Assembly: GCA_963702095.1 (NCBI GenBank)
Contig: OY969706.1
Location: 1,568,001-1,632,000, forward strand
Reading direction: 5' to 3'
Length of the DNA stretch: 64,000 bases
Source: Candidatus Bathyarchaeota archaeon
GTDB taxonomy: Archaea > Thermoproteota > Bathyarchaeia > Bathyarchaeales > Bathycorpusculaceae
Shown here: one piece after another, positions 34,099 to 43,852 of the stretch
Layout: each line of letters starts with the position of its first letter
How positions within the stretch are numbered: position 1 is the first letter of the stretch
Notes under the pieces: generated by a model
What the model saw: the letters and a program-made list of their open reading frames with translations, nothing else
Databases searched by the model: none
Told to the model about the DNA's origin: nothing
Program-made: the position numbers and the translations under genes

Positions 34099-35002
34099 AT
34101 GGAACGAGTTAAGTATTTTATGGATTTAACGGTCGTTAAGCCCTGCCATAAAGTTAACTTGAAAGATTGCAAAACTGGTTGGGCACAAAACGAAGAAGCA
34201 AAATTGATGGGCAAAGGCGAACTTAAAGATAGAGCAAACAGGCTTCTGCAGGAAAACCAGCAACAGACTAGCTGAAGCACAGGAACTCCTCTATGCCAGC
34301 CACACCTACGCCTTGCTGGTGATTCTGCAGGGCATGGATGCAGCAGGAAAAGACAGCACAATAAAGCATGTGATGTCAGGAGTTAATCCCCAAGGGTGCA
34401 GAGTCACCAGTTTCAAGCAACCCTCAAGCACCGAGCTTGACCATGATTTCCTTTGGCGACAATGTGTCGCGCTGCCTGAGAAAGGCATGATTGGCATATT
34501 CAACAGATCCTATTACGAAGAGGTCTTAGTGGTTAGAGTACATCCAGACCTTTTGGATAGGCAGAGGTTGCCGCCGGGGAACCGAGGAGAAAAGTTTTGG
34601 CAACAACGATACCAAGACATCGCATCCTTCGAACGCCATCTTGCACGCAACGGAACCGTCCTCCTAAAGTTTTTCCTAAACGTTTCCAACGAGGAGCAGA
34701 AAAAACGTTTCTTAGAACGCCTCGATACACCCCAGAAAAACTGGAAGTTCTCGGCTGCAGACCTAAAGGAACGCGATTATTGGGAACAGTATAGGGGGGC
34801 TTACGAGGATATGCTGAGTAATACAAGCACCAAGTGGGCGCCATGGTACATTGTCCCCGCGGATTACAAGTGGCTAGCGCGTTCCCTTATCGCTGACATA
34901 ATTACATCGAGCATCCTCTGCTTAGACCTCAAATATCCAGAGGTAAACAAGCAGCAGCTAGAGGGGCTTAAGGCAGCTAAGATGAAACTTGAATCCGAAT
35001 AA
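34099..35002 (+). CDS. ppk2: Polyphosphate kinase 2 family protein, frameshifted near 34265
   Basis: QELLYA..LLVILQGMDAAGKD, FK.PS..EL.HDFLWR, FNRSYYE.VLVVRVH, WKFS..D..ER. Confidence 0.9.
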
Positions 35003-35004
35003 CC

Positions 35005-36182
35005 TCAGGATGCCTTCCTAAAAGCTAAAAGCAAGGGTACAGTCGCCGCTGCTACTCCAGCAGAAAACAAAAACGCCAACCCCACAAACCCAGCGGCTAA
35101 CCCAACCGAAAACAGGGTAGTAGCCAAAACAGGCGCGATGCTCTGTGCTAACCCCGCGATTGCCAGGCCACACCCAAAGTGCCCCCCTGAGCAGCCTCCG
35201 AAGCGCTAACAGAAATCAAGGTGTTATAAGTTACGAATTGTATGCCAAAGCCGAATGAGGATATTGCTGTGACGACTAATAGAACCTCAAGGTTGGCAAC
35301 AAAGGACAGGACGGCGAGGCCAAAAATGAAGGCGACTACGCCTAAAAGAACCAACGTTTGCCTGTCGAAGCGTTTGCCAAGCGGCGGCAGCAAAACAGCC
35401 TGAGTGAAAACGCTCACCGCACCGATGAAAAAGAAAACTAAACCCGTTTGCAGTGAGCCAAAATTGAAAACAGCTTCCAGCCAAGGAGAAAGTGCGGATT
35501 GCAGAAAGACGAAGGATACAAAAAAAAGGAAATATACCGCAAGTAAAAGAACCATTTTTCTGCCTCTGATAGTGTCTAAGAGGGCTCTAAAAGAGAGAGT
35601 AACCCGTTTAACGTTGAAGCTGGCGGGTTCAGGCAACAGAAAAAACGCTGAAACAAGATTTCCTAACGCCAGCGCAGACGCCAAAAACGATGGCACCCCA
35701 TAGCCCAAGAAGGTGCTTAGTGTTCCGCCAATGGCAGGACCAAAAATAAACGCTAACCCCGCCGCTGCACCCAGCAACCCCAGATATTTTAGCCGCTGCT
35801 CTTTGGTGGTTACGTCGGCGACGTAGGCTTGGGCAACCGGAACCGTGGCAGCGGTGGTTCCAGAGAGCATCCTCCCCAAGAAAAGCATCCAAAGTGCCTG
35901 AGCTGCGCCAAAAAGTAAGTAGCTGAAACTTGACACGGCCAAGGCAGCTAAGAGGATTTTTCTTCGTCCATAGCGGTCGCTTAATCGGGCAACGAGGGGA
36001 GTAAAAACAAACGACATTAAACTGTAAGATGCCAGAAGCACGCCGTATAACAGGGTGCTGCCGCCCAATGATTGAACGTAGAAGTAGAGGTAGGGAACAA
36101 CTATGGCGAAGCCTAAGTTATCGAGGAAAACCACGGAGAAAAGCACGCTAAAGGTGGACCGCTCAGGGTTGGTGTTTACCAA
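35005..36182 (-). CDS. MFS transporter (TetA/DHA1-like), frameshifted near 35165
   Basis: LSDRYGRR, LFLGRMLSG, AYVAD.T, GPAIGG; adding one G (TGG GCA) restores the last TM helices to TGA at 35005. Confidence 0.88.
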
Positions 36183-36304
36183 AATTTCACTAAGAAGGTA
36201 GTGTTGACAGGGCAAATAAGCGTTTTTAACTAGAAATGCACCTTGACAGTAATCAAAATAATTGTTTTTTGGGGTTGCTGGCGGCGGGTATGTTTGTTTA
36301 GCCC

Positions 36305-36545
36305 TGCTTGTGCCCGATTGCATTGCGCTGTCGTTGCCGTTCACTGCTTTGACGCTAAAAAAGTAGTCGATACATGCTTTCACACACATCCAGTGCGCCT
36401 CTCCATGGAGCCATGTACCGCGTGTGGAGAAAAACGCTTTTTCCACACCGAAACAGACAAAGAAAAACAATGCAACCAAAAAAAGCAACCGCCTCCAGTT
36501 ACAGTCTTGTGGCACCCCACAAACCACCACACCCACATAAAGAGA
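36305..36545 (+). repeat. Dispersed repeat family A, copy A5 (full length, 241 bp)
   Basis: Near-identical inverted copy of 5412-5652. Confidence 0.95.
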
Positions 36546-36661
36546 GAAAAAACAACCAGCAAAAAACCTGTTAAGGCTGAGGTTGGCATTGTTTGTTATT
36601 GATACGGCACAGTCACGCACACTAATACACGCGTTTCGAGGCTATTGTGTGGGTGAAAAAT

Positions 36662-37598: not shown

Positions 37599-38729
37599 TT
37601 AGGGAATTATTTCGGCTCCATTGTATTTGACGTAGTCGAAGTCGGCGAGTTTGATTTTCCCGCTTTTTATTAGCCGCTGTATCGTTGGCGTCTGCCGCTT
37701 TACTGATTCGATAAGTTGCAAAACGGTGTAGCATACTCTGCTGTAGGCTTCGTCTGTCCACCGCTTGGTTATGTTGGTGTAGAGGCAGCGTCCTCCGCAG
37801 AGACCTAAGATCGTGCATTCGCTACAGGGTTTCTCCTCCACAAACCGTTTAGGCAGCCGCATGGGATCAGCGTCTTTTATATTGCCCATATAATAGGCTT
37901 TCATTCCCCACATGGTCGGGCAAGGAATGATGTAGCCGTCGGTTTGGATGGCATAGTTGATCCAGCCGCCGCCACACCGCATCAGACAATCCGCTTCGCC
38001 ATGCAGAAGCGAATATGCGATGCCCAGCAACGGGTAGAGTTTTAGAATTATACCCTTGTCTTCCATTTGGTCCACCCAGAACTTGGCTAAAGCGTCGACG
38101 CCGGGGATGTAGCTGGTTTTGCTCCACTCGTCAAAGTTGCGGCGTTGGTAATCGTTGCCCCAGAACCCAGCGTTTAGTTGCCAATGAACCGAAGAAAAAG
38201 AGAATTCATCGTTGCACAGTAGCCATTTTACTTGTTTCTCTATGTCTGTTTGTTCCATGACGGTCATGCGTGCGATGAGTTCGCCTTGGAACCCGTTTTG
38301 CCGGATGTGTGTGAGGTTGTTGATGACTTTGCGGAAGGTGCTTTTGCCGCGGTAGTGGTCGGTGAGGTTTTCGTCGCCGTCTAAGGAGACTAGGATTGTG
38401 TGGAAACGGTTGACGTATTTGGGTTCGAGTCTATCGAGTAGTAAACCGTTGGTTTGAATCATGTAGTGTTTAGGCGTGATTCTATCCATGATTTGCCGCA
38501 GCTTATCCATCTGCATGAGGGGTTCGCCGCCGTAGAAGGTTAAAACGCAGTCGGGGTCTTTGCGGCAAAACTTGTCCAGCAAACGCAGGTCGTAGTTGAG
38601 GTTGCGGGGCAGATTATAGTCGACTTCGATGTCGCCGCCGAATTCCTCGTCGAAGTCATCAAGGCTCTCGCCGAAGCAGTACTTGCACTGGAGGTTGCAG
38701 TTGCTGGTGAGGATCACATGGAAGAACAT
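37599..38729 (-). CDS. Radical SAM/SPASM protein (AF0577/TIGR04084-like, putative peptide modifier)
   Basis: CNLQCKYC, FYGGEP, CGGG..N...DG...PCP, C..C....CGGRC. Confidence 0.85.
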   Translation of the reverse strand: MFFHVILTSNCNLQCKYCFGESLDDFDEEFGGDIEVDYNLPRNLNYDLRLLDKFCRKDPDCVLTFYGGEPLMQMDKLRQIMDRITPKHYMIQTNGLLLDRLEPKYVNRFHTILVSLDGDENLTDHYRGKSTFRKVINNLTHIRQNGFQGELIARMTVMEQTDIEKQVKWLLCNDEFSFSSVHWQLNAGFWGNDYQRRNFDEWSKTSYIPGVDALAKFWVDQMEDKGIILKLYPLLGIAYSLLHGEADCLMRCGGGWINYAIQTDGYIIPCPTMWGMKAYYMGNIKDADPMRLPKRFVEEKPCSECTILGLCGGRCLYTNITKRWTDEAYSRVCYTVLQLIESVKRQTPTIQRLIKSGKIKLADFDYVKYNGAEIIP

Positions 38730-38752
38730 AGCTTATCCATAGATTACGGCCT

Positions 38753-38820
38753 GCTTAATAGTATTATTGCCAACGAATTAGTGTATAAAAGAATACAAAA
38801 ACTTAACCGCTTGGAGGTGC
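38753..38820 (+). promoter_or_regulatory. Duplicated promoter/RBS cassette, copy 2
   Basis: 35 of 38 nt identical to the reverse complement of 29547-29584, plus the shared GCTTGGAGGTGC. Confidence 0.7.
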
Positions 38821-38913
38821 AATTGGTTTGAGCAGAATGACAGACGAGACAATACCCTACCTTGAGCAGTTGTATTCAAGCACTTTCATTGGATGTCGTA
38901 CATTCCTTCTCTA

Positions 38914-39864
38914 CTATGGTCTGTAACCGTTCAAAGTCGTCAACGCTAACGCCGCCGCGGTGATGTCTGCAGTGGTTCCGGGGTTATAATCGTTGCCCGC
39001 TTTACGCAGCTTCTTATCAAAAGCAATCAGGGCTTCTTTGCCCCTGGCGGTTTCGGCGCCGCCATAGTCGAGGATTTGCTGGGCGCCCTCAGAGACTTCG
39101 TTGGCTTTTTGTCGACCGATTTTTCGGGCGATAAAAGTGTCAGGGTTCCTGGCGAGAACGTTGAGGAACGTGTTAACAATAGCTGTGTTATGGTCTTTAC
39201 GTTTGAGTTCTGTGGCTAAGTATGGGTAGGCTAAGTCGAAGGTTATTGGGTAATTGTTTATCCATTCACTACAGATGTCATCGTAGCTCGAAGCGATCTC
39301 AAAAACCTGGCGCAACGTAACGTTTTCTGTGATTAGGCGGGCTTTGGAGTTTTGGTCTTTGACGTTTAAGTCAGGTGCACCGTTGAGTCCACTGGGTTTC
39401 GCAATATCTATGGCTTCGTATACTGCCACGGAATCCAAAGCGGTAGATGCCTTGATTACTTTGTCAATATTTTTGCGGAAAACCGCGAAGTCAAGCGTAT
39501 ATTTTTCGTCGGTCGGCGTCATGCCAGCCGCGACCGCCATCGGAGCAAACAGCATGATGGTGCCAAGCAGGGTGTTGCCGCCACGCTGCCACTCGTCGAT
39601 GTCTTTGATGCCCAACCGTATAAGCTCGCCTAATTCCGCGTTGGCGAGGCCGCGTTTGCCCTGGGCGATTTCGATGCCGCGGTAAGCCGCCTCCTGAAAA
39701 GATGGCCCTGCGGCGATGGAGGAGGCCAAAAAGTGTTCGGCTCTGGTGCCTTCAAAGTCTATGACTAAGTTTACGTTGCCTGGTTTGTCGGCGCTGACTT
39801 CTAGGATGATGGCTAATTGTAGGCATCTGCTGATGTGTTGAGCTTTTTCGCAGTTGATTGCCAA
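38914..39864 (-). CDS. citG: Triphosphoribosyl-dephospho-CoA synthase (CitG/MdcB)-like protein
   Basis: LEV...KPGNV, NT.LG...L..P, PDT.I.RK.G, NPGTTAD..AA. Confidence 0.88.
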   Translation of the reverse strand: MAINCEKAQHISRCLQLAIILEVSADKPGNVNLVIDFEGTRAEHFLASSIAAGPSFQEAAYRGIEIAQGKRGLANAELGELIRLGIKDIDEWQRGGNTLLGTIMLFAPMAVAAGMTPTDEKYTLDFAVFRKNIDKVIKASTALDSVAVYEAIDIAKPSGLNGAPDLNVKDQNSKARLITENVTLRQVFEIASSYDDICSEWINNYPITFDLAYPYLATELKRKDHNTAIVNTFLNVLARNPDTFIARKIGRQKANEVSEGAQQILDYGGAETARGKEALIAFDKKLRKAGNDYNPGTTADITAAALALTTLNGYRP

Positions 39865-39958
39865 TTTTGATGCACCGTTCTATTACGGTTCAAAAAAAGC
39901 CTTATTAACGTTATGTAAAAAATTACACACAAGTGCAGCAGTATACAACCGTGATGCT

Positions 39959-40972
39959 ATGAAGGCGCGTGAAGGAGACTTAATCAAAACCAAGAGCAAC
40001 GTGGTTTTCGACGTTAAAGGGTTAGTTCATCCGCCGCAGAAAATCATCGCGTTCCCCCGTTACATACCTACGCCGAATGGCCAAGAAAAAACCAAAGCGT
40101 CACATACGGCAAAGTCTACAGTTTAGGCGACCGCTTTCGGTACCTCCAACAAAACCACCCTGACCTCATCGTAGACGACCCCGTTTTCGGTGAAACCCTC
40201 TGCGAAGTCCCAACCAACCAAATCATAGAAATCCTTCAGCCCACAGAGAAGCTTGCAGAGTTCCGCAAAGCCAAAACCCTCTCGCCGCTGGAAGAAAAAG
40301 CCCTCCGCTTAGCAGAGCGCCTCAAAGAGAAGGCGGGTATCCCGTGGAGCAGCATCGGCATCTCAGGTTCCATCATGGCAGGCTTAACCACAGCCGCCTC
40401 AGACATTGACCCGCTTGTCTACGGCATAGAAAACAGCCGCAAAGCCTACGCTGCATTGGAGGAGTTGCGCAAAGAAGACGATTCAGGCTTCAAAGCCTAC
40501 ACGCAGGCGGAGCTAAGAACGCTCTATGATTTCCGCTCAAAAGACACGCAGATGAGTTTTGAGGATTTTTTGGCAGCGGAGAGTCGCAAAGCGTTTCAGG
40601 GCATGTTTATGGGCACAGACTACTTTGTCCGCTTCGTCAAAGACTGGACTGAAACCGCCCAAGAGTACGGCGACGTAACCTACCGGAACAGCGGCTACTG
40701 CAAAATCCTCACCAAAATCGTTGACACAGAAGACGCCCTGTTTACGCCCTGCACCTACAAAGTCGGCAGTGTTGTGACGCTTCAGGGGCCAGCAGCTCTC
40801 GTCGATTGAGGAAATTGTTTCTTTCCGCGGCAGATTCTGCCTCCAAGCTGCAGTTGGCGAACGCGTCGAGGCACAGGGCAAGGTCGAGTTGGTAGTGGAT
40901 AAAAAAAGCGGCAGCGAACATTACCGCCTCATTTTAGGCAATAAACCCCAAGACTACTTGGTGCTCACTTAG
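39959..40972 (+). CDS. Pol-beta-type nucleotidyltransferase paralog 1, frameshifted near 40082 and 40795
   Basis: REGD..FDVKG..HP, GISGS..SDID..VYG and C-terminal SFRGRF..A..GE.V...GKVE across three frames. Confidence 0.8.
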
Positions 40973-42042
40973 TGGAGTGCTTTTAGGACTTGCTCGTAGT
41001 AGCGTGGGCAATAGGTTAAGGTGACTTGATGGTAGCTGCCTTTGGGCGATTGGACCTCTTCTAAGTTGCCCTCGACGATTACGGTTTCGTCGCGCTGCAC
41101 TTGCTGGCGGAACTCCTCCATATAACTAAACACGCGGACGACTTCAAGGGCTTCTTTGGGTCCACTGAGCACTTCTAAGGGTTCGATGCCGTAGACTGAG
41201 GGAATAAACGGTCCATCATCGTCCGCTGTCACCCGTGCTTTGAGTTTTACCCAGCCCTTCTGCACAATCCGAGCTTCGGGATCATACTCGTTTACGATTT
41301 CCCCCCATGCTTTGACGGGTTCAAACTCTGCTTTGATTACTCTGCCGCTGCACTTGCGGTCGTCGTAGAGACCATAAATGTATTTTCGGCGCTGATGCCA
41401 CACAAAGTCGGGTACGGTGAAGTTTTTGAAGAGCCACCTTTTGCCTTTCATGGCGTCTTGGGAGGCGAACTCGTTGCTAAGCCCTGATGTTGGGTCAGAG
41501 TAGAGTTGCTTGTTTGTTTCGACGATTTTGCGGTTTTCTTCTTTGCCGTAGATAGTGAAGTCGATGTCAGAGTATTTGGGGTGGTGGAAGCCATGCAGCA
41601 TTGAACCGAAAACCCCGAAGCTCTGCGGTGACACACCCGACTTGCCGGTGGAGATTTCGAGTACTCGTTCCATAGCCGCTAAAAGCGGGTCAGCTGGGCC
41701 TTTTTTGAGCAGTTCCTGCAACCGGGGCTGCGGCTGCCTTGCCTCAGCAATCAGGTCATGAGGAACGCCGACGATTTTTAACCCAAGCATTTGGTGGTCG
41801 ATGAGGTATTGGGGGTATTTTTTGGCGACGAGTTTCATGCCTTCGTCATTGTAGAATTTGTAGTAAAGCTCGTTTCTGCCTTCGCGGGGTGCTCTTGGGT
41901 CGGTGGAGTGGAAGATTTTTGAGCTGGCGTATTCCGCATCGCAAATGTAAGCGTTTTGTGGGTGGTTGTAGCCGAAGACTCGGAAAAGGATGCCCTCAAC
42001 GCTTTGGATGGCGTCTCGGTCGCGGAGTTTTAGGTTGGCCAT
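40969..42042 (-). CDS. Pol-beta-type nucleotidyltransferase paralog 2
   Basis: RDRD..FRVFGY.HP, GVFGS..SDIDF.IYG. Confidence 0.85.
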
Positions 42043-43079
42043 ATGTACTCTTCTTCTGAAGTGGCTGTTCCCACAACGACCTGGTAGAAGGTGCTGCCGT
42101 CTGTTGTGGATTGGGCTTTCTCTAGGGTGCCTGCGACTTTGATTTGCCCCCCGTTGCGGGCGATGTTTCGGTAGCAGCCAATGTTTGAGATGACCTGTGT
42201 GGGAATCTGTTCGAGGTCAAGTTCTGACTGTGCATCCATGGGCTTGTAATTGGTGATTCTGTAGGCGGCTGGGCGATACATGGTTTCGGTGTCGTCGCAC
42301 ACAGTTGCGGTGAAGCGCAGGGGCGCCAACGCGGTGTAGGTGTAGTCGCCGTATTTGCCCTTGATTTCCTCTGGGTTTTTGGTGGCGTTGTACATCCAGA
42401 TTTTGCCGTGGTATTTGCCGACGAATTTGCGGGCGGCTTCGATGCGGTTACCCGCGATGTAGGTTAAGGTGCCCTCATTCACCAGGATTTGGATGGTTTG
42501 TTCGACCTGACGGAAGTTGTCGGTGCCGTACACGACAAAGTCAATGTCGCTTTCAGGCGCATGCATCTCCAACGCGATAGAGCCGTGGATGCCCAAGTCG
42601 CTGTAGGCTACACCTGATTCTTTGTGGATGAGGTCGATGAGTTTGAGCGCGTGGGTTTGGAGGCTGTCGGGGCTTTTTAGGTTCTGCAGCCACACAAGCC
42701 GGTCTCTTGGCACAAACATCTGCTCAATCTTGTCTAGTGGCGCGGTTATGAGTTCTTTGCTGCGGGTTTGGTCGTAGAAGAGGTAGTTGGGGAAGTTTTT
42801 GCGGAAGGCTTCGATGAAGGTTTGGTAGTTTTTAGCTGTGTAGAGTTTTTCGGCACGGAACAACTGCGCCGTAAGCGGTTTTGATCCAAACTTCCATGTG
42901 CGCTGCAGCATTTCTACGTTGAAGAGGTCCTTGTACTTGGCTGGGATGTACTTGAGAAACGCGAACACCCTATCCTCTGGGTGCTCGTAGCCGAACGTGT
43001 TCATGATGAAGCCGTCTTCGGTGACAAAGGTGTCGCCGTCGGCTGGAACCCAAATTGTTGCGTCTTCCGTAAGTTGCAC
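42030..43079 (-). CDS. Pol-beta-type nucleotidyltransferase paralog 3
   Basis: [23 protein letters not shown]. Confidence 0.85.
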
Positions 43080-43137
43080 CGCAAAAGTATGACTTGGCGT
43101 TCACTAAAAAAGCTATTGCAAAAGGCTTGGCAAAAGT

Positions 43138-43278
43138 TTTGTTTTTCTATGTTAAGAAGAAGAGAACGCCGCCCTTACTCAGCTTCTTCCAGCGGGCTTT
43201 GCTGTGCAGTGCTTTTTGGCGTTGGATTGTGTGTGTGATTGCGGATTGGTTGAGGCGTTTTCTACAAGCAGAGCAAAC
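43138..43278 (+). repeat. Dispersed repeat family B, copy B3
   Basis: GTTTTTCTA..TTAAGAAGAAGAGA..GCCCTTACTCA..TGGTTGAGG.GTTT..TACAAGCAGA, closely matching 54628-54768. Confidence 0.85.
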
Positions 43279-43304
43279 ATAGGAGCCTCACTTAGAAATG
43301 CGGA

Positions 43305-43852
43305 TTAAATTTGACTTAAGATGTTCTGCGCCAAGACCTCAGGCAAACCTTCACGGTTATCATGTGTAACCAAAAACGCCTCAGCATCTGCACGGCACTT
43401 GGTCTCCACTATTAAGGGATCTTTGGCTTTGGCATGCACAATCGCCAACACAACCTTTGGACTATTCAACGCTGCCTCTACAGCTTGCTTAAACTTTTGC
43501 GAAAAAAGCTCCAGGGGCCAATGTCGTCGATGACTACTACCTCATACTTATGGGTGGCTTCAGAGATGGCTTCTACGCCTATACTGTCAAGATCCTCAAG
43601 ATTAACATGGTATTTTCCTATTTGTGGCCCCGTTTTCTGCGCTACATGTGCTAGCCAGCCATGCTTGCCGCTTGTTAAATCGACGACTTCAAACCCTACA
43701 CGTGCATAGCCATTTCTGGCTTCACGGCTAATCATGCCGCCTATACTGATGCCGTGACTTTTGAGGGTCTCAACGGTTTTAGAGAGAACAGTGGTTTTTC
43801 CACTCTCTGGTGCGCCGGTAATGATTAGGATTCTCTTCTCCAAAGCAACCAT
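43305..43852 (-). CDS. THEP1/NTPase_1 family nucleoside triphosphatase, frameshifted near 43515
   Basis: ITGAPESGKTT, GG..S.E.R...RVGF, VVIDDIGP; adding one C restores LELFSQKF to TAA at 43305. Confidence 0.85.

Follow-up and report, generated by a model that had tools for sequence, protein, structure and literature searches.

The closest described systems to the locus considered here are the enzyme pairs CitG and CitX and MdcB and MdcG. CitG and MdcB transfer the ribose-triphosphate portion of ATP to a hydroxyl group of dephospho-CoA, with the loss of adenine and the formation of an alpha-glycoside, and CitX and MdcG attach the alpha-phosphate to the hydroxyl group of a serine, whereby pyrophosphate is lost. 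Methanopterin, the one-carbon (C1) carrier in methanogenesis, anaerobic methane oxidation, and the archaeal Wood–Ljungdahl pathway, contains an alpha-ribofuranosyl-5-phosphate, which is linked glycosidically to the ribitol of an aminophenyl-ribitol unit and through a phosphodiester to (S)-2-hydroxyglutarate; to our knowledge, the enzymes that add this ribose-5-phosphate and hydroxyglutarate tail are unassigned. Bacteria whose carrier is dephospho-tetrahydromethanopterin, a form with neither the phosphate nor the hydroxyglutarate, retain the CitG homologue. At positions 1,568,001–1,632,000 of a single-contig 2.94-Mb Bathyarchaeia assembly (genome completeness 90%), a 64-kb stretch analyzed as a whole and referred to below as the window, a CitG-like gene lies beside three genes for paralogous nucleotidyltransferases (NTases), here called NT1, NT2, and NT3. 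Comparison with relatives indicates that this module probably takes part in making a C1 cofactor of the methanopterin type, and what it makes is likely to be the tail of an already known type of cofactor, since the module tracks methanopterin markers and sits in methanopterin gene clusters elsewhere. An earlier note on this DNA had proposed a new cofactor or a protein-tagging system, which does not agree with a module that follows MptG and Mch and lies in clusters of methanopterin biosynthesis (Mpt) genes.

Within the window, the CitG-like gene (38914–39864, minus strand, 316 amino acids [aa]) is divergent from NT1 (39959–40972, plus strand) across a 94-nucleotide (nt) spacer (39865–39958). 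The intact genes NT2 (40969–42042, minus strand, 357 aa) and NT3 (42030–43079, minus strand, 349 aa) overlap by 13 nt at the 3′ end of NT3 and the start of NT2, and both converge on NT1, with the stop codons of NT1 and NT2 overlapping at 40969–40972. This is the layout reported in the earlier note, which had citG divergent from NTase 1 over about 95 bp and an overlapping pair of NTases converging on NTase 1. A scan of the spacer for bacterial-type promoters and terminators, whose model is inapplicable to archaea, returned nothing. Homologues of NT2 at 85–97% identity bear Bathyarchaeota or Bathyarchaeia source names. Among 80 close loci that were fetched with NT2 as the query, so that NT2 is present in 80/80 by construction, NT3 was found in 79, NT1 in 75, and the CitG-like gene in 69, and in all of the close loci with both genes (69/69) the CitG-like gene was adjacent to and divergent from NT1, with a median gap of 211 nt between the aligned parts. 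The order NT3-NT2, convergent NT1, and divergent CitG-like gene was present in 10/10 same-genus loci, the CitG-like gene occurred in 16/18 loci of a smaller fetched set, and an NT1 query matched 27/31 related genomes, mostly as three adjacent matches. Other neighbors of the module in the window, namely a radical S-adenosylmethionine (SAM) gene, an NTPase gene, a GT2 glycosyltransferase gene, and Trm1, were each found near it in 0/18 loci of the smaller set and in 1, 1, 1, and 2, respectively, of the 80 close loci. Because NT3, NT1, and the CitG-like gene recur while these neighbors do not, the unit consists of the CitG-like gene and the NTases, and the radical SAM and NTPase genes, which had been counted as parts of the system, are chance neighbors, each recurring in 1/80 loci.

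The strongest evidence for a methanopterin link is the gene context of the module in other lineages. In locus L114, the order is AMP phosphorylase, NT, NT, CitG-like, DUF447, MptE-like, DmrX, DUF1464, PTPS-like, MptG, and MptH; in L115, it is MptG, DUF447, MptE-like, MptH, MptA, MptD, NT, and NT; and in L116, NT, an aminotransferase, MptH, DmrX, MptA, MptG, DUF447, and DUF1464 follow one another on a single strand. Locus L118 carries MptH, MptD, MptA, MptG, DmrX, DUF1464, DUF447, MptE-like, and CitG-like genes in that order, and L119 has NT, a nuclease-like gene, NT, CitG-like, DUF447, MptA, MptE-like, MptD, and DmrX, with Mer nearby. In L121, an NT gene follows FwdB, FwdA, FwdC, and Mch, and a CitG-like gene and another NT lie farther along. 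The CitG-like gene is directly beside an NT1-type gene in other families as well (L114, L119, L120, and L123). Family f33 has a single NT in each of two complete genomes (G066 and G112), co-oriented with the CitG-like gene at a distance of ∼50 nt. Relatives of the f33 NT bear the names Metallosphaera, Acidianus, Sulfurisphaera, and Sulfolobus acidocaldarius, and the S. acidocaldarius protein matches the NT family profile with 99.8% probability. Two further families recur near the CitG-like and Mpt genes, DUF447 (∼205–237 aa, flavin-reductase-like; L114:10305–10922, L119:10355–10987, L118:8530–9159, and L116:11636–12247) and DUF1464 (∼373–398 aa; L114:12587–13750, L116:12259–13380, and L118:7304–8500), and these may represent further missing methanopterin steps. 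A Mrr/UPF0102-like nuclease-fold gene of 229–235 aa lies between two NTs at L119:7497–8186 and L120:9023–9730; the two copies come from unrelated families and share 51% identity. One record titled as a Methanocella sp. metagenome-assembled genome (L043) was rejected as a sample of another phylum, since its genome has no match to MCR alpha and carries a Bathyarchaeia-type NT/CitG cluster; its label or binning looks wrong.

Co-occurrence across genomes follows the same pattern. The earlier note had asked for phylogenetic profiling of citG with the NTases, and this was run over 301 Thermoproteota genomes that are 80% or more complete, in which the NT family was matched in 151, PF01874 in 143, MptG (TIGR00144) in 116, and Mch (TIGR03120) in 79. 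NT and PF01874 were found together in 139 genomes and neither was found in 146, against 16 discordant genomes (12 with NT only and 4 with CitG only). NT and MptG were both matched in 112, NT only in 39, MptG only in 4, and neither in 146, and when MptG or Mch was accepted as the marker, the corresponding counts were 149, 2, 9, and 141. The tallies name 30 families, of which 20 have both NT and CitG, eight have neither, and two are discordant; in families f19, f23, f24, and f27, 0/102 genomes match NT, PF01874, MptG, or Mch. Adjacency in close and distant loci and co-occurrence across genomes support a functional link between the CitG-like gene and the NTases, and the linkage claimed in the earlier note holds among close relatives, in distant families, and across the profiled genomes.

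The CitG-like protein matches PF01874 over residues 13–308 of 316 with 231 bits (cut-off 27) and falls far below the NCBIfam cut-offs for CitG and MdcB equivalogs (best NF002315, 58.4 vs. 280 bits; TIGR03132, 42.9 vs. 282 bits; TIGR03125, 40.0 vs. 272 bits). By these profile scores, it is a member of the PF01874 superfamily and not a CitG/MdcB equivalog. The sole solved chain that it matches is PDB 3h9p (E = 1.9e-16, residues 36–315), which its depositors named a “putative” triphosphoribosyl-dephospho-CoA synthase and for which we know of no demonstrated function. Searches of this 90% complete genome for the citrate-lyase acyl carrier protein (ACP, PF06857), CitX (PF03802), and MdcG (PF10620) returned nothing at E ≤ 0.01, and no lyase or decarboxylase was found; the earlier note had likewise listed no lyase, decarboxylase, or ACP gene here. 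In 14 control genomes, PF01874 matched four archaea (M. jannaschii, M. acetivorans, H. volcanii, and S. acidocaldarius), ACP and CitX matched E. coli only, and the MptG model TIGR00144 matched the same four archaea.

The three NTases share 22–25% pairwise identity with BLASTP E-values of 2e-16 to 8e-21 (2e-16 for NT3 against NT2 and 5e-19 against NT1), and all three contain an N-terminal D/EGD..G..HP motif, a G.xGS..SDID..YG motif, and a C-terminal beta domain. Judged from sequence similarity, they are true paralogues, diverged and with shared motifs as had been described. In an alignment of 82 NT sequences (A1, NT2 residue numbering), residues H27, G143, S147, D159, D161, G325, and E328 are invariant. 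Pfam and NCBIfam scans returned no dedicated model for the NT family, and 76/82 members of A1 match PF01909 at E ≤ 1 (NT2 with 24.9 bits against a cut-off of 21 and NT3 with 20.3 bits, slightly under it); on these profile matches and the invariant G-S...D-x-D residues, the NTases belong to the Pol-beta nucleotidyltransferase superfamily (PF01909). PDB sequence searches with NT2 and the family profile returned nothing below E = 0.25, a protein atlas search returned only clusters of the same unnamed NT family, a subfamily search with an NT2 alignment returned close Bathyarchaeia only, and a dedicated search for fused NT forms of 647–2000 aa found none. At L122:1850–4159 (plus strand), beside a second NT, a 769-aa protein is a fusion that begins with a D-type NTase and ends with a peptidase/deacylase of the M20 family.

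The AlphaFold2 model of NT2 (predicted local distance difference test [pLDDT] 96.9) has three domains. Residues 1–112 form a small N-terminal beta barrel, which gave no clear match when modelled alone (pLDDT 93; best Z 4.2, Sm/KOW-like barrels). Residues 113–246 form a Pol-beta core, which aligns in VIA-align with Trf4, TUT7, TdT, GLD-2, and MenT1 at Z 6.2–6.9, and residues 258–357 form an OB fold, which aligns with SSB, MCM-N, and the AspRS anticodon-binding OB folds at Z 5.8–7.1 (∼7 for SSB and MCM-N). A Foldseek search with the NT2 model gave no match at E ≤ 0.001, its top rows being OB-fold RNA/DNA binders. The names CitX and MdcG were not among the Foldseek and VIA-align rows shown, and the library may hold no CitX or MdcG structure. 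The fold leaves the substrate undecided, since all Z values lie below 8, a range common among unrelated models.

NT paralogues number from 1 to 4 or more. A tree of 62 NT sequences, from which seven same-genus loci were left out against redundancy, resolved four clades (NT1, D, NT2, and NT3 types) under a midpoint root, with a warning for long-branch joins. Members of the NT1-type clade (support 100/99) come from several families within the phylum, and the clade holds both the window NT1 gene and the CitG-adjacent genes of L114, L119, L120, and L123. The D-type clade is widespread, with representatives that include one Vulcanisaeta and one Helarchaeota name, and is absent from the genus of the window. 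The NT2 and NT3 types have long stems and, among the loci sampled, were seen only in the taxonomic order to which this genome belongs. NT1 is read as the universal CitG-adjacent type, and NT2 and NT3 as two fast-evolving types.

Taken as a whole, the reading that we favor, with a confidence somewhat above even, is that the module assembles, in two steps resembling those of CitG and CitX, the ribose-phosphate-hydroxyglutarate tail of a cofactor of the methanopterin type. In the first step, the CitG-like enzyme would use ATP, release adenine, and place a 5-triphospho-alpha-D-ribosyl group onto the free ribitol hydroxyl of the pterin-aminophenyl-ribitol precursor. In the second step, the NTase would allow the hydroxyl of (S)-2-hydroxyglutarate to attack the alpha-phosphate, which would release pyrophosphate and leave a ribose-5-phosphodiester; another lineage-specific alcohol could be the acceptor in variant cofactors. 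The assignment of this particular chemistry to the side-chain tail is tentative and falls somewhat short of an even chance, and the roles of the individual paralogues, as well as their joint working, possibly in the heteromeric NTase complex suggested in the earlier note, are inferred.

A number of observations weigh against this two-step reading. Both chemical steps are proposed by analogy, 0/82 members of A1 match CitX (PF03802) or MdcG (PF10620) at E ≤ 1, and the nearest folds of NT2 are nucleotidyltransferases of RNA/DNA ends and single-strand-binding OB folds, which suit a nucleic-acid substrate equally well. In the profile, 39/151 NT-positive genomes have no MptG match, though 37/39 have Mch, and discordant genomes occur for each pairing (12 with NT and no CitG, 4 with CitG and no NT, and 9 with markers and no NT); the profile tables also overstate the association because related genomes are not independent. 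A Pfam profile scan found no Mpt gene within the 64-kb window, MptA had no match and MptG only a match of 9.9e-5 in this genome, and DUF447, DUF1464, MptD, and MptE queries returned no match in it. Finally, the assembly presents the key paralogue, NT1, as a broken gene. The genome retains Mch, FwdABC, and an MptH-like gene that is split, and same-genus relatives carry a DUF447-MptG-MptH operon. The MptH-like gene (PF00809 and DUF4346; G000:C1:980000–996000, L129) lies in two frames with 50–58% identity to same-genus MptH, and two radical SAM genes, one of them B12-binding, are nearby. The absence of the MptG/MptA set may reflect a missing genome segment, at a completeness of 90%, salvage of a precursor, or a decaying pathway.

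Both NT1 and the NTPase differ from the description in the earlier note. NT1 runs through three frames (39959–40126, 40018–40809, and 40778–40972) because of two shifts of one base each, in an A6 run (40086–40091) and a G4 run (40783–40786), and the THEP1-like NTPase (PF03266; 43305–43852, minus strand) is split once, at a C4 run, into two frames (43478–43852 and 43305–43541). In relatives, all three pieces of NT1 lie in one intact frame of 338–440 aa. It is possible, though the less probable case, that the NT1 shifts are real mutations and that the module is decaying in this genome along with the loss of de novo methanopterin synthesis. Two shifts fall within a single 1-kb gene, and the MptH-like gene is likewise in two frames, so that real decay is retained as an explanation; the operon carried by same-genus relatives also points this way, as MptG and DUF447 were not found here. 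However, all of the frame shifts in the window (3/3) are at homopolymers, the invariant HP, GS, DxD, and G..E residues of NT1 are all kept despite the shifts, and each piece is otherwise open. In a rough multi-frame census of the genome, with proteins from 80 related loci as queries, 10/179 conserved-gene rows (∼8 of ∼177 distinct genes) align across two or more frames, in most cases at homopolymers (for example, G000 C1:986491–988034, 1164303–1164978, and 851759–853334). This suggests residual insertion and deletion (indel) errors of the single-contig assembly or scattered pseudogenes, and such a pattern would be typical of indel errors. Across the first shift site, one contig from a related strain has 115 letters compared with 114 in the window. 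In a search of sequencing runs, the best DNA matches, which share ≤0.12 of words, were relatives' contigs, and no RNA match was listed. The evidence leans toward assembly indels rather than real mutations as the cause of the NT1 shifts.

Other roles for the module were weighed against the building of a methanopterin-type tail. The module might serve another C1 cofactor or step, such as methanofuran or the salvage or remodelling of pterins, and it does lie beside fwd and mch instead of Mpt genes in some cases (L121), while the relative in L122 is a fusion with an M20 peptidase; its retention in this genome, where MptG, MptA, MptD, MptE, and DUF447 were not found, would suit salvage. The presence of the NT family in 112/116 MptG-positive genomes speaks against this explanation, as do 77 NT-positive genomes without Mch, because of which a cofactor specific to formyl-methanofuran fits less well than a pterin cofactor, and a role of this kind is accordingly considered unlikely. 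Action of the NTases on nucleic acid, for example an addition to, or modification of, the 3′ end or a 2′-OH of tRNA or another RNA, with or without the CitG product as donor, is improbable to a greater degree. The alignments of the core with terminal nucleotidyltransferases and of the C-terminal domain with OB folds, the RNA/DNA binders at the top of the Foldseek rows, and the position of Trm1 in the window would all agree with it, but every Z value lies in the range seen for unrelated models, and Trm1 neighbors the module in just 2/80 close loci. The presence of NT tracks MptG or Mch and no RNA-related trait, the genes lie within Mpt operons, and NT was not found in any of the 102 genomes of families f19, f23, f24, and f27, all of which still need tRNA processing.

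Tagging of proteins in the manner of CitX and MdcG, in which triphosphoribosyl-dephospho-CoA would be put on serines of carriers that are unknown, appears very improbable. A PF01874 gene is indeed paired with GS...DxD NTases here, as in citrate lyase and malonate decarboxylase, and several paralogues could serve several targets. Such a system is difficult to reconcile with the lack of a conserved candidate carrier gene adjoining the module in the 80 close loci and the distant loci, with the genome-wide negative results for ACP, CitX, and MdcG, with a CitG-like protein far under the CitG/MdcB equivalog cut-offs, and with conserved neighbors that are enzymes of small-molecule cofactors. Just as improbable is that the three-domain NTases, whose core resembles terminal transferases and which carry an OB fold, tag RNA or protein with a ribosyl-phosphate group from a CitG-made donor and that the tie to methanopterin is regulatory or coincidental; if this were true, CitG-dependent tagging of macromolecules would be an undescribed archaeal modification system.

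The surroundings of the module in the window contain several further genes. The radical SAM/SPASM gene downstream of the CitG-like gene (37599–38729, minus strand) matches TIGR04084 (AF0577-type) with 294 bits against a cut-off of 225; its sole recurrence among the close loci is 11 kb from CitG. This position, and that of the NTPase upstream of the NTases, are as the earlier note gave them. The GT2 glycosyltransferase and Trm1 genes lie beyond the NTPase, with Trm1 1.9 kb away. A PPK2 frame (34313–35002, plus strand) starts at profile position 32/229, and an MFS transporter frame (35148–36620, minus strand) is extended at its N terminus by ∼150 aa that match nothing; a start or frame problem is possible in both.

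Within the full-text literature, from which subscription journals were largely out of scope, no paper was found that assigns the NT family or that places the CitG-like enzyme at a particular step of methanopterin synthesis. Two concrete, assayable candidates for the missing tail steps are provided by the CitG-like gene together with the NT family, and the Sulfolobaceae offer a tractable test bed, since S. acidocaldarius has a member of the family and Sulfolobaceae-type genomes keep NT and CitG adjacent. If the two-step reading is confirmed, the known chemistry of CitG and CitX would apply to a soluble cofactor as well as to the prosthetic group of a protein.

Among the known systems, the terminal nucleotidyltransferases (Trf4, TUT7, GLD-2, TdT, and MenT1) resemble the NTases in their Pol-beta core (NT2 residues 113–246), with weak PF22600 hits from 15/82 members of A1, and differ from them in having no accessory domain in common, and the genomic context of the NTases is one of cofactor synthesis. 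In methylotrophic bacteria, the CitG homologue Orf7 is listed among the proteins linked to tetrahydromethanopterin (H4MPT), in a mch-orf5-orf7 island (PMC3615186), and in Methylomonas mch is listed in one consecutive run with genes for a glutamate ligase and for a “triphosphoribosyl-dephospho-CoA synthase” (PMC11533326). These islands are similar to the archaeal module in placing a CitG-family gene amid methanopterin-linked genes, and they differ in being bacterial and in that a partner nucleotidyltransferase goes unmentioned in the available parts of both sources (PMC3615186; PMC11533326). A triphosphoribosyl-dephospho-CoA synthase-type enzyme also appears as a table entry for Methanobacterium (PMC7386643). 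Compared with CitG and CitX or MdcB and MdcG, the genome carrying the archaeal module has no match to ACP, CitX, or MdcG, the conserved neighbors of the module are methanopterin genes, and the NT family has no sequence match to CitX or MdcG (0/82), comprises three domains including an OB fold, and is present in 1 to 4 or more paralogous forms. What the systems share is the pairing of a PF01874 gene with a G-S...D-x-D nucleotidyltransferase, and the chemistry proposed for the archaeal module would likewise consist of triphosphoribosyl transfer from ATP followed by the pyrophosphate-releasing formation of a phosphodiester.

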